Positions 3,640 through 9,600 of a DNA stretch of 12,474 nucleotides are shown piece after piece. Position 1 is the first letter of the stretch, and each line of letters begins with the position of its first letter. The position numbers are program-made. The stretch comes from a virus (lineage: Duplodnaviria > Heunggongvirae > Uroviricota > Caudoviricetes), in the IMG/VR virus record IMGVR_UViG_2671180651_000010. One strand, given 5' to 3'.

Positions 3640-6600
3640 TAAGACATTCCCGCTCTTACACATCCCAGCCCTGAAAAAGGGCATCAAAATAAACCACACC
3701 TATGGTGTATGCATTTATTTGCATACATTCAATCAATTGTTATCTAAGGAAATACTTACATATGGTTCGTGCAAACAAACGCAACGAGGCTCTACGAATC
3801 GAGAGTGCGTTGCTTAACAAAATCGCAATGCTTGGAACTGAGAAGACAGCGGAAGCTGTGGGAGTTGATAAGTCGCAGATCAGCAGGTGGAAGAGGGATT
3901 GGATTCCAAAGTTCTCAATGCTGCTTGCTGTTCTTGAATGGGGTGTCGTCGACGACGACATGGCTCGATTGGCACGACAAGTTGCTTCGATTCTCACCAA
4001 TAAAAAACGCCCGGCGGCAACCGAGCGTTCTGAACAAATCCAGATGGAATTCTGAGGTTATTACTGGAACTATCAACAGGAGTCATTATGACAAATACAG
4101 CAAAAATACTCAACTTCGGCAGAGGTAACTTTGCCGGACAGGAGCGTAATGTGGCAGATCTCGATGATGGTTACGCCAGACTATCAAATATGCTGCTTGA
4201 GGCTTATTCAGGCGCAGATCTGACCAAGCGACAGTTTAAAGTGCTGCTTGCCATTCTGCGTAAAACCTATGGGTGGAATAAACCAATGGACAGAATCACC
4301 GATTCTCAACTTAGCGAGATTACAAAGTTACCTGTCAAACGGTGCAATGAAGCCAAGTTAGAACTCGTCAGAATGAATATTATCAAGCAGCAAGGCGGCA
4401 TGTTTGGACCAAATAAAAACATCTCAGAATGGTGTATCCCTCAAAACGAGGGAAAATCCCCTAAAACGAGGGATAAAACATCCCTCAAATTGGGGGATTG
4501 CTATCCCTCAAAACAGGGGAACACAAAAGACACTAATACAAAAGAAAATAGAAAAGATTATTCGTCAGAGAATTCTGGCGAATCCTCTGACCAGCCAGAA
4601 AACGACCTTTCTGTGGTGAAACCTGATGCTGCAATTCAGAGCGGCAGCAAATGGGGGACAGCAGAAGACCTGACCGCCGCAGAGTGGATGTTTGACATGG
4701 TGAAGACTATCGCGCCATCAGCCAGAAAACCGAATTTTGCAGGGTGGGCTAACGATATCCGCCTGATGCGTGAACGTGACGGACGTAACCACCGCGATAT
4801 GTGTGTGCTGTTCCGCTGGGCCTGCCAGGACAACTTCTGGTCCGGTAATGTGCTGAGCCCGGCCAAACTCCGCGACAAGTGGACCCAGCTCGAAATCAAC
4901 CGTAACAAGCAACAGGCAGTCGTGACAGCCAGTAAACCAAAACTCGACCTGACAAACACAGACTGGATTTACGGGGTGGATTTATGAAAAACATCGCCGC
5001 ACAGATGGTTAACTTTGACCGTGAGCAGATGCGTCGGATCGCCAACAACATGCCGGAACAGTACGACGAAAAGCCTCAGGTACAGCAGGTAGCGCAGATC
5101 ATCAACGGTGTGTTCAGCCAGTTACTGGCAACTTTCCCGGCGAGCCTGGCTAACCGTGACCAGAACGAACTGAACGAAATCCGCCGCCAGTGGGTTCTGG
5201 CTTTCCGGGAAAACGGGATCACCACAATGGAACAGGTTAACGCAGGAATGCGCGTAGCCCGTCGGCAGAATCGACCATTTCTGCCATCACCCGGGCAGTT
5301 TGTTGCATGGTGCCGGGAAGAAGCATCCGTTATCGCCGGACTGCCAAACGTCAGCGAGCTGGTTGATATGGTTTACGAGTATTGCCGGAAGCGAGGCCTG
5401 TATCCGGATGCGGAGTCTTATCCGTGGAAATCAAACGCGCACTACTGGCTGGTTACCAACCTGTATCAGAACATGCGGGCCAATGCGCTTACTGATGCGG
5501 AATTACGGCGCAAGGCTGCCGATGAACTGTCCTGTATGACCGCACGAATTAACCGTGGTGAGGCTATACCTGAACCAGTAAAACAACTTCCTGTCATGGG
5601 CGGTAGACCTCTAAATCGTGCACAGGCTCTGGCGAAGATCGCAGAAATCAAAGCTAAGTTTGGGCTGAAAGGAGCAAGTGTATGACGGGCAAAGAGGCAA
5701 TTATTCATTACCTGGGGACGCATAATAGCTTCTGTGCGCCGGACGTTGCCGCGTTAACAGGCGCAACAGTAACCAGCATAAATCAGGCCGCGGCTAAAAT
5801 GGCACGGGCAGGTCTTCTGGTTATCGAAGGTAAGGTCTGGCGAACGGTGTATTACCGGTTCGCTACTAGGGAAGAACGGGAAGGAAAGATGAGCACGAAC
5901 CTGATTTTTAAGGAGTGTCGCCAGAGTGCCGCGATGAAACGGGTATTGGCGGTATATGGAGTTAAAAGATGACCATCTACATCACTGAGCTAATAACAGG
6001 CCTGCTGGTAATCGCAGGCCTTTTTATTTGGGGGAGAGGGAAGTCATGAAAAAACTAACCTTTGAAATTCGATCTCCAGCACATCAGCAAAACGCTATTC
6101 ACGCAGTACAGCAAATCCTTCCAGACCCAACCAAACCAATCGTAGTAACCATTCAGGAACGCAACCGCAGCTTAGACCAAAACAGGAAGCTATGGGCCTG
6201 CTTAGGTGACGTCTCTCGTCAGGTTGAATGGCATGGTCGCTGGCTGGATGCAGAAAGCTGGAAGTGTGTGTTTACCGCAGCATTAAAGCAGCAGGATGTT
6301 GTTCCTAACCTTGCCGGGAATGGCTTTGTGGTAATAGGCCAGCCAACCAGCAGGATGCGTGTAAGCGAATTTGCGGAGCTATTAGAGCTTATACAGGCAT
6401 TCGGTACAGAGCGTGGCGTTAAGTGGTCAGACGAAGCGCGACTGGCTCTCGAATGGAAAGCGCGATGGGGAGATCGGGCTGCATGACTATCAAATCAAAT
6501 ACGCCAGCACACGACAAGGACTGCTGGCAAACGCCGCTTTGGCTTTTTGATGCACTGGATATTGAGTTTGGATTCTGGCTGGATTCGGCAGCGAGCGACA

Positions 6601-9600
6601 AAAACGCTCTGTGCGCTCACTGGCTAACTGAGGCTGACGACGCGCTAAATTCTGAGTGGATAAGCCACGGTGCAATCTGGAATAACCCACCGTACAGCAA
6701 TATCAGGCCGTGGGTGGAAAAAGCCGCTGAGCAGTGCATACAACAGCGACAGACGGTAGTGATGCTTGTGCCAGAGGATATGTCTGTCGGATGGTTCAGC
6801 AAGGCTCTGGAGAGTGTTGACGAAGTTCGTATTATCACTGATGGACGGATTAATTTTATCGAACCATCGACAGGGCTGGAGAAGAAGGGAAACAGCAAAG
6901 GCTCCATGCTGCTGATTTGGCGACCGTTCATTAGTCCTCGACGGATGTTTACTATCGTATCCAAAGCGGCATTGATGGCGATCGGGCAGGGCGTCAGGAG
7001 GGCGACATGAGGCGACAACGACGAAGTTTCACCGACATCATCTGCGAAAACTGCAAATACCTTCCAACGAAACGCTCCAGAAATAAACGCAAGCCAATCC
7101 CAAAAGAATCTGACGTAAAAACCTTCAACTACACGGCTCACCTGTGGGATATCCGGTGGCTAAGACATCGTGCGAGGAATACAAGGTGATTGACCCAAAT
7201 CGAAGTTACGAACAAGAAAGCGTCGAGCGGGCTTTAACGTGCGCTAATTGCGGTCAGAAGCTGCATGTGCTGGAAGTTCACGTGTGTGAGCACTGCTGTG
7301 CAGAGCTGATGAGCGATTCGAATAGCTCGATGCACGAGGAAGAAGATGATGGCTAAACCAGCGCGAAGACGATGTAAAAACGATGAATGTCGGGAATGGT
7401 TTCACCCTGCATTCGCTAATCAGTGGTGGTGCTCTCCAGAGTGTGGAACCAAGATAGCACTCGAACGACGAAGTAAAGAACGCGAAAAAGCGGAAAAAGC
7501 AGCAGAGAAGAAACGACGACGAGAGGAGCAGAAACAGAAAGATAAACTTAAGATTCGAAAACTCGCCTTAAAGCCCCGCAGTTACTGGATTAAACAAGCC
7601 CAACAAGCCGTAAACGCCTTCATCAGAGAAAGAGACCGCGACTTACCATGTATCTCGTGCGGAACGCTCACGTCTGCTCAGTGGGATGCCGGACATTACC
7701 GGACAACTGCTGCGGCACCTCAACTCCGATTTGATGAACGCAATATTCACAAGCAATGCGTGGTGTGCAACCAGCACAAAAGCGGAAATCTCGTTCCGTA
7801 TCGCGTCGAACTGATTAGCCGCATCGGGCAGGAAGCAGTAGACGAAATCGAATCAAACCATAACCGCCATCGCTGGACTGTCGAAGAGTGCAAGGCGATC
7901 AAGGCAGAGTACCAACAGAAACTCAAAGACCTGCGAAACAGCAGAAGTGAGGCTGCATGAATATCTACGAAAGAATTGATGGCAGCAAATACCGAAATAT
8001 TTGGGTAGCTGGCGACCTGCACGGATGCTACACGAACCTGATGAACAAACTGGATACGATTGGATTCGACACCAAAAAAGACCTGCTCATCTCGGTTGGC
8101 GATTTGGTTGATCGCGGTACAGAGAACGTCGAATGTCTGGAATTAATCACATTCCCCTGGTTCAGAGCTGTGCGTGGAAACCATGAGCAAATGATGATTG
8201 ATGGCTTATCAGAGCGTGGAAACGTTAATCACTGGCTGCTTAATGGCGGTGGCTGGTTCTTTAATCTCGATTACGACAAAGAGACTCTGGCTAAAGTTCT
8301 TGCCCATAAAGCAGAAGAACTTCCGTTAATCATCGAACTGGTGAGCAAAGATAAAAAATATGTCATTTGCCACGCCGATTATCCTTGTGATAAATACGAG
8401 TTTGGAAAGCCAGTTGATCATCAGCAGGTAATCTGGAACCGCGAACGAATCAGCAACTCACAAGACGGGATCGTGAAAGAAATCAAAGGCGCGGACACGT
8501 TCATCTTTGGTCATACGCCAGCAGTGAAACCACTCAAATTTGCCAACCAGATGTATATCGATACTGGCGCAGTGTTCTGCGGAAACCTCACATTGATTCA
8601 GGTACAGGGAGAAGGCGCATGAGACTCGAAAGCGTAGCTAAATTTCATTCGCCAAAAAGCCCGATGATGAGCGACTCACTACTGGCCACAGTTTATTGGT
8701 TTTCGTAACTGAGTCATTTTATTATTTTATTGCAACTTTTAATCTTTTATAGTGCGAAATAAATGGAGCTGGCATTCATTTCGCACTTTATGTTTTTGTT
8801 GGACTTATGTTATTTTGATTGAATTCAATTCAGTTAAAAAAAGAAGGTGATTGCTCCATTTATAAATGAATAGTCATCCCCTGTCTTGAATTCTGATGTT
8901 ACTTTATTAAATGCTAGTGTGAAGGCTACAGGTGCATACCCAATTGTTGCGCCAACTTGATATTCATCAACAGTTTTGTTTAGCGATACTGTTGTTTGTT
9001 TCGTCTGTATTGTTTTTCCTTCGAGAGTATAGTTGCGATTGACATCTCGTCTTTCCATACCTGCAAAAATCTTGTATTTGAATCCGCTTGTATCGGACAT
9101 ATGCATTAAACCACGGGGAGCCAGCAGACCAAAGCCATTATCCGAATTGAAGGTTTTATCATTACCAATGGCAATGGTTGCGCCATATGCTACATATTGA
9201 AATAAGTTTCCAGTAACAGCAGAAACTTCAGGGTATAATCCAACATTAGCACCTAAAATATCCATACTTGGTGTCATGGATAGCATCCCTTTTACAGTAT
9301 AACCGTAGCGATTCTCTATTTGATCATCCCATGCATGATATTTTTCTGCCCCAATAATCTCATGAGCTTTATTTTGTACTTTCTGACCGCCTGCGTCGGG
9401 GCCAACAACACCTATGTCAGTACCTAATCGATAGCGAATCCAGTCATTCGCAAGGGAGTTCCATTCAATACCAGTGTGAGTGTATGCACTAAAAGCTCTG
9501 TCTCCAGTTACAGCTGTGTTGTGTCTTTTATTACTGCCTGATGGAGAGTAAATATCTTGCGCAATATGGAGAGATAATTGGCTCGAGTCTGAGATATCGT

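Follow-up and report, generated by a model that had tools for sequence, protein, structure and literature searches.

An orphan N6-adenine methyltransferase gene in the nin region of a lambdoid prophage and its probable GATC specificity

Phage-borne Dam enzymes and the nin-region copy

The Dam methyltransferases of phages T1 and HP1 methylate GATC. The T1 enzyme (M.EcoT1Dam) was reportedly purified and characterised by Scherzer et al. in 1987. Both are orphan phage enzymes and founding members of the Pfam family PF05869, encoded by a virulent siphovirus and a P2-like phage, respectively, and not in a nin region; their primary characterisations are cited in passages of PMC7139368, among others. 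A further enzyme, M.EcoVT2Dam (VT-2 dam), was cloned by Radlinska & Bujnicki in 2001 (PMID 11720311), according to passages of PMC6602927 and PMC7139368, where its target is reported, with reference to the same work, as GATC. Here we describe a 175-residue phage N6-adenine DNA methyltransferase encoded by a dam-like gene at positions 6483..7010 of IMG/VR record IMGVR_UViG_2671180651_000010, a 12,474-nucleotide stretch of a lambdoid prophage that was analysed at its full length (hereafter, the window). It is very probably a T1/HP1/VT2-type orphan GATC enzyme that would be made in the lytic phase and top up host Dam methylation of phage DNA; its biochemical identity is well supported, and its biological role is one that we infer.

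VT2-Sakai orf32 (NP_050531.1) is identical to the window protein at 172/174 residues and occupies the same ninB-dam-ninE slot, likewise with overlapping stop and start codons; the two proteins differ by two conservative substitutions (I60V, I157T) and a terminal T/A difference, and functionally nothing distinguishes them. Since orf32 is the sole gene annotated as a methyltransferase in VT2-Sakai (a 60.9-kb record, in which the 8.4-kb orf71 was not domain-scanned), it is taken to be M.EcoVT2Dam, an assignment in agreement with PMC6602927, in which one Stx2 prophage is listed as having separate genes for M.EcoVT2Dam and for M.EcoGV, the latter of the MT-A70 type. A second candidate for M.EcoVT2Dam in VT2-Sakai, orf4, was rejected, as it is a DUF551 protein. 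By analogy with these relatives, the most probable target of the dam gene product is the adenine of GATC, which host Dam methylates too. An earlier note, made from the window sequence without database searches, had called the target site unknown, a statement that is outdated because the near-identical VT2-Sakai enzyme has been reported to be GATC-specific.

HP1 Dam, from a Haemophilus phage, is homologous to the window protein over its full length (38% identity, E 1e-32), and so is T1 Dam (33% identity, E 2e-26), whose sequence is longer by an N-terminal extension of 44 residues and an insertion of 14; both belong to PF05869 and have the motifs DxWxTP, LDxAA and NPPYS in common with the window protein. 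The same gene, of identical class, is carried by phage 434, whose 'DNA adenine methyltransferase' (UMO75323.1) is 100% identical in protein and 99.8% in DNA, by phages Phi24B (annotated 'dam'), HK97, mEp043/213, HK140 and Sf101, and by E. coli (WP_000153263.1, named phage N-6-adenine-methyltransferase by PGAP).

The distribution of the gene is wide, and the earlier presentation of it as a peculiarity of one prophage does not hold. Copies of at least 95% nucleotide identity are found in 244 phage records and, among 5426 complete E. coli genomes, in 1566 (about 29%, with at most 5 copies per genome), and homologues, down to ~30% identity, are present in 1905 of 50,697 phage records. It is a standard mosaic module of lambdoid phages, already annotated and characterised, and as such already known rather than new. 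Truncated and fused versions can also be identified in databases (e.g., P0039 and P0068, and fusions with NinE or NinB). The Dam domain is seen fused to NinE, CII, RusA, NinB, holin or Q-like sequences in proteins P0001, P0005, P0011, P0013, P0022, P0038 and P0079; such fusions probably arose artificially, through frameshifts, assembly errors or gene calls that read through the overlapping stops.

Family membership, motifs and predicted fold

Comparison with methyltransferase profiles, which had been proposed as a check, clearly assigns the protein. It matches PF05869 'DNA N-6-adenine-methyltransferase (Dam)' with E 1.5e-64 and 217.2 bits (cutoff 28.1), residues 4-169 aligning with profile positions 1-167/169, and the NCBIfam equivalog TIGR01712 'phage N-6-adenine-methyltransferase' with 262.8 bits (cutoff 97.05) over profile positions 1-165/165. 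It also matches PHROG 111 'DNA methyltransferase' and the 'orphan methyltransferase' models of PADLOC. The claim of a 175-residue orphan N6-adenine methyltransferase with an NPPY motif is thus borne out by the reading frame, by both family matches and by NPPY at residues 68-71. The label 'Dam-type', also given in the earlier note, is right by function but not by descent: a Pfam scan up to E 10 returns PF05869 only, with neither the profile of E. coli/T4 Dam (MethyltransfD12) nor that of MT-A70, and the label is a functional one because the protein is not homologous to the E. coli/T4 Dam family. Among phage Dams, only those of T2/T4 are homologues of the cellular enzyme (PMC7139368).

The gene and the sites recognised in and just before it are as follows.
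6483..7010 (including the stop), + strand: dam-like gene for a 175-residue phage N-6-adenine DNA methyltransferase (open reading frame; PF05869 and TIGR01712)
6467..6472, + strand: ribosome-binding site GGGGAG, 10 nt 5' of ATG 6483 and within the 3' end of ninB
6513..6536, + strand: N-terminal block DKDCWQTP, residues 11-18, of the family pattern D-x-W-x-T-P (conservation in alignments)
6573..6596, + strand: motif I-like segment FWLDSAAS, residues 31-38 (predicted strand beta-1 and the next loop)
6684..6695, + strand: catalytic motif IV NPPY, residues 68-71 (invariant in both alignments; directly after predicted strand E64-67)

The open reading frame extends on the + strand from ATG 6483 to TGA 7008-7010 (175 codons plus stop). 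The start is placed at 6483 because the PF05869 profile, whose first position falls on residue 4 of the product, and the homologues, HP1 Dam included, begin there; RefSeq and the phage 434 record have the same start, and the latter has a ribosome-binding site annotated at the equivalent position (locus 3985-3988). A GTG at 6423, which would give an in-frame product of 195 residues, was rejected, since profile and homologues begin at the N-terminus of the ATG-6483 product. An antisense open reading frame of 174 residues (6617-7141, - strand), lying over the methyltransferase gene and ninE, matches no Pfam family and is most likely open by chance, facing a conserved coding sequence, and an Rfam scan found nothing within the dam interval 6483-7010.

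Two alignments, made with HP1, T1 and VT2 Dam and 47 enterobacterial homologues and one of them comprising 48 sequences, show three conserved blocks, D-x-W-x-T-P (residues 13-18), L-D-x-A-A (residues 33-37) and N-P-P-Y-S (residues 68-72), as well as additional conserved positions in the C-terminal half. In HP1, T1, VT2 and the enterobacterial members the residues that do not vary in the first two blocks are D13, T17, P18, L33, D34 and A37, and W15 and A36 are nearly invariant; the 48-sequence alignment shows the same, and N68, P69, P70, Y71 and S72 are invariant in both. NPPY stands just after a predicted strand, an arrangement as in N6-adenine methyltransferases. From its position in the predicted fold, FWLDSAAS is presumed to be motif I, the loop that would bind S-adenosylmethionine (AdoMet), and the linear order, from the motif I-like loop to NPPY ~30 residues on, is that of the gamma class.

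The protein is predicted to adopt a class I AdoMet-dependent methyltransferase fold in a single domain, without a separate target-recognition domain; in the AlphaFold2 (AF2) model strand beta-1 is E31-34 and ~29 residues lie between it and the NPPY strand. Structural comparison gives values of 11.2 for PCIF1, 10.1 for M.TaqI, 9.7 for M.BseCI, 9.6 for MmeI, 9.1 for CamA, about 9 for Type I HsdM, 8.6 for E. coli Dam and 7.9 for T4 Dam, the matches to the last two spanning just ~105 residues. When the PDB was searched by sequence (phmmer) and by profile for a relative of solved structure, all matches were at chance level (E of at least 0.1), and neither method matched any of the PDB Dam sequences. 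E. coli Dam, T4 Dam and DpnM, which are alpha-class enzymes of the MethyltransfD12 family, have no detectable sequence homology to the window protein and exceed it by ~100 residues and a target-recognition domain; the alpha-class arrangement, with this domain between the AdoMet-binding half and the DPPY half, is not seen here. The gamma-class enzymes M.TaqI, type I HsdM, MmeI and CamA recognise their targets through large domains or subunits and have a cofactor half that is complete (beta1-beta2-beta3), in contrast with the 175 residues and short cofactor half of the window protein, which is 10-17% identical to them in sequence.

A third class deserves separate mention. M.EcoGV and M.EcoPA8orf6770P of Stx phages are likewise prophage-borne orphan adenine methyltransferases annotated as GATC-specific, and an M.EcoGV-type enzyme shares some Stx prophages with the nin-region dam gene (PMC6602927). 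However, they belong to another family, MT-A70, with a DPPW motif and an adjoining gene for a partner subunit (PMC10810198), whereas the window protein has NPPY, no MT-A70 Pfam match and nin genes as neighbours. The possibility that the dam gene is the published 16S rRNA-methylating Stx-phage enzyme was rejected, the latter being an MT-A70/DPPW protein encoded close to the phage's left end.

Because the protein has no target-recognition domain and a truncated cofactor half, and because no solved structure was detected in its family by sequence or profile, an unconventional mode of target recognition was considered. There is a slim chance that so small an enzyme does not read its target unaided, its GATC specificity depending on obligate dimerisation over the palindrome or on a partner of phage or host origin, or that it has a second physiological substrate such as RNA, as in the case of the unrelated Stx-phage 'Dam homologue'. 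It is more improbable still that the physiological substrate is not DNA GATC at all, but RNA or adenines of relaxed or other specificity, perhaps directed by a partner, GATC methylation being a side activity of over-expression. The single domain of 175 residues, in which no target-recognition domain can be recognised, would fit such a substrate; so would the Stx-phage 'Dam homologue' that is annotated as GATC-specific but acts as a 16S rRNA methyltransferase when partner-bound (PMC10810198), and the existence of non-specific prophage adenine methyltransferases, e.g., M.EcoGII (in a passage of PMC5778455). Yet the 16S rRNA precedent is an MT-A70 (DPPW) protein of unrelated sequence from the opposite end of the phage genome, while PF05869 alone is recognised here, and the PF05869 members from T1, HP1 and VT-2 are cited, in the passages of the literature named above, as characterised DNA Dam methyltransferases. 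The neighbouring genes, ninB and ninE, are conserved in nin regions and occur without dam as well, as in lambda. A GATC-specific DNA methyltransferase is by far the preferred reading.

The nin region and the rest of the window

The features surrounding the dam gene are as follows.
5998..6031, + strand: tR2-like intrinsic terminator between ren and ninB (stem and T-run; phage 434 annotation)
6046..6486, + strand: ninB (orf), recombination mediator (PF05772, E 1e-53; NinB in phage 434, lambda and E. coli records)
6487..7013, no strand assigned: mosaic module in place of lambda ninC and ninD, without lambda nucleotide homology (blastn against lambda)
7007..7189, + strand: ninE (PF05322, E 1.3e-42; annotated NinE in phage 434 and E. 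coli records)

From ren the genes run, past the tR2-like terminator, as ninB, dam, ninE, ninF, ninG, ninI (Ser/Thr phosphatase) and Q, whereas lambda has ninB-ninC-ninD-ninE. In blastn against lambda the homology of the window ends at 6486 and restarts at 7014, and therefore a 527-bp module fills the slot of lambda ninC and ninD; the interval 6487-7013 is 97.6% identical to VT2-Sakai and 99.85% to phage 434. Its place between ren/tR2 and Q within the pR operon, the ATGA packing and the exchange at gene boundaries are those of a nin-region mosaic module. The ATGA overlaps described in the earlier note are read directly at both ends: at 6479-6488 (CTGCATGACT) the dam ATG 6483 overlaps the ninB stop 6484-6486 (ATGA 6483-6486), and at 7003-7012 (CGACATGAGG) the dam stop 7008-7010 overlaps the ninE ATG at 7007 (ATGA 7007-7010). 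Such stop/start overlaps are a general trait of the nin region and not peculiar to the dam gene (PMC8022706).

The statement that the methyltransferase replaces ninC and ninD is accurate relative to lambda, given the homology gap, but fails as a rule. In Salmonella phage vB_SosS_Oslo (JQ806764.1, 41693-42220) a dam module 98.1% identical to this one stands in the order ninB-dam-ninC, dam being followed by NinC (PAPS-reductase-like) and not by NinE; dam and ninC are therefore not strict alternatives. The orphan status, in contrast, stands as claimed: no candidate restriction endonuclease was found by Pfam or PADLOC among the flanking genes (NinB, NinE, NinF, NinG and the Ser/Thr phosphatase) or elsewhere in the window, which otherwise holds lambda-type early genes, LpxR and Q, and the unassigned reading frames of the window have zero PADLOC matches. 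The adjacent cognate endonuclease gene of a type II restriction-modification system is thus absent.

Upstream, the terminator, a strong intrinsic one, has a stem at 5998-6021 of 8 pairs, 6 of them GC, followed by TTTTATTTGG (T-run), and the phage 434 record has a terminator annotated at the equivalent place (locus 3517-3547). We take this tR2-like terminator at 5998-6031 to be lambda tR2. In lambda, tR2 is the barrier whose removal defines 'nin' (N-independence). Because they lie behind it, ninB, dam and ninE are classed as delayed-early genes.

Within the same region, ninH is missing with respect to lambda: ninG (7346-7960) is directly followed by the NinI-type Ser/Thr phosphatase gene (7957-8622), and the homology to lambda skips ninH around 7957-7962. 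GATC sites fall within the dam gene region or at its edges (6472 and 6980) and in ninB (6071).

Further observations concern the window at large. Over positions 2483-11018 it shares 99.85% identity with phage 434, and this part includes the genes for the imm434 repressor and Cro (cI 2691-3323, - strand; cro 3427-3642, + strand). Over its entire length it matches, at 100% identity, prophages that in E. coli O103:H2 and other strains are integrated beside ybhC, at the att region of lambda; in those genomes an IS3 element adjoins the window on its left. Inside an ea10/DUF2528-like gene, positions 482-521 are 40 consecutive N, which stand for a longer masked stretch, since the window is ~197 bp shorter than the matching E. 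coli locus. A lambda-type Q is cut to an N-terminal fragment of ~29 codons (8619-8708); 3' of it, in opposite orientation, lies an LpxR lipid A deacylase gene (8834-9793, - strand; PF09982, E 6.8e-40), itself followed by the gene of a Q82-type antiterminator (10268-10957), a layout of Q fragment, LpxR and Q82 as annotated in phage 434.

Two reading frames of the window have PHROG matches but neither Pfam nor PADLOC matches. The first, of 293 residues (737-1618, - strand), occupies the place of lambda ral and sieB, between N and the ea10-like gene; its sole match is PHROG 12139 (unknown function), apart from a weak resemblance of its last 20 residues to the Nun-like termination factor family (E 6.9e-05). 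The second (11127-11885, + strand; PHROG 1521) encodes a predicted membrane protein of 252 residues directly 3' of Q, the slot of stx or other morons in Stx phages. The sole Rfam family in the window is Lambda_thermo, the cIII thermoregulator (259-317, - strand; 88.5 bits).

Proposed role of the phage enzyme

By this position, dam belongs to the pR early-right operon and is translationally coupled to ninB and ninE, and its product would be made only after N-dependent antitermination, in infection or induction, and not in a stable lysogen. During rapid phage replication the phage enzyme would supplement a limiting host Dam, so that phage DNA would be fully GATC-methylated prior to packaging; progeny DNA may thereby be shielded from restriction of the MboI/DpnII type in a new host, and full methylation may spare the DNA from MutH nicking during recombination-dependent replication. 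Consistent with such a role, host Dam leaves the DNA of lambda and P22 virions under-methylated, perhaps since methylation does not keep pace with replication (PMC8022706), and the shielding of exported DNA by orphan methyltransferases is a recognised anti-restriction strategy (PMC12707154). In Phi24B, the expression pattern of the 'dam' coding sequence (528 bp, 100% identical to VT2-Sakai NP_050531.1) is tied to the lytic cycle (PMC3342100).

Several points weigh against a GATC enzyme with this protective role. Dam-like enzymes, when overproduced, can methylate off-target in vivo, and the predicted AdoMet-binding half of the window protein, as measured from beta-1 to the NPPY strand, is unusually short. 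GATC is only mildly under-represented in the whole window, with 28 sites against 44.65 +/- 6.31 expected from dinucleotide-preserving shuffles (200/200 shuffles had at least 28), a depletion that is uninformative alone. The equation of orf32 with M.EcoVT2Dam is deduced from its being the only annotated methyltransferase and from the listing in PMC6602927, and the GATC specificity of the VT-2 enzyme is taken from papers citing the work in question (PMID 11720311). The other 'Dam homologue' of Stx phages, although of the unrelated MT-A70 family, prefers 16S rRNA (PMC10810198). Finally, protection is deduced from context, and its benefit may be small in E. coli hosts, which are normally dam+.

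Protection of phage DNA and an epigenetic function had both been put forward in the earlier note, and both are reasonable, but an epigenetic or lysogeny-related role is disfavoured by operon position and lytic expression. A mainly regulatory enzyme, by which the passage from hemi- to full GATC methylation would alter SeqA, Dam-sensitive promoters or the repressor and so tune lysis and lysogeny, is a very unlikely alternative, even though stable lysogeny of Stx phage 933W reportedly depends on host Dam (work of Murphy et al. in 2008, cited in PMC3342100), the authors of PMC3342100 suggest that phage Dam could supplement host Dam, and GATC sites are spread through the early region of the window. 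The location behind a tR2-like terminator and the lytic-linked expression of the Phi24B copy make a part in lysogeny maintenance unlikely, no GATC clusters were noted at promoters or operators, and lambda lives without a dam gene. That the reading frame is an inactive or decaying nin-region remnant without function is scarcely credible: lambda can grow without its nin-region genes (PMC8022706) and truncated and fused database versions exist, as mentioned above, but the gene is intact and of full length, has a ribosome-binding site, encodes a protein 100% identical to that of the viable phage 434 with every family-invariant residue present, and is conserved across the phage records and E. coli genomes counted above.

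As the gene of a probable T1/HP1/VT2-type orphan GATC enzyme, it is of small discovery value, being present in RefSeq, having Pfam and NCBIfam families of its own, and having a near-identical counterpart in VT2-Sakai reported as GATC-specific in 2001. Its product is nevertheless a compact natural case of a minimal N6-adenine methyltransferase, and the gene is one reason why prophage-rich E. coli, Shiga toxin-producing E. coli included, carry several redundant GATC methyltransferases that are indistinguishable in methylome studies.

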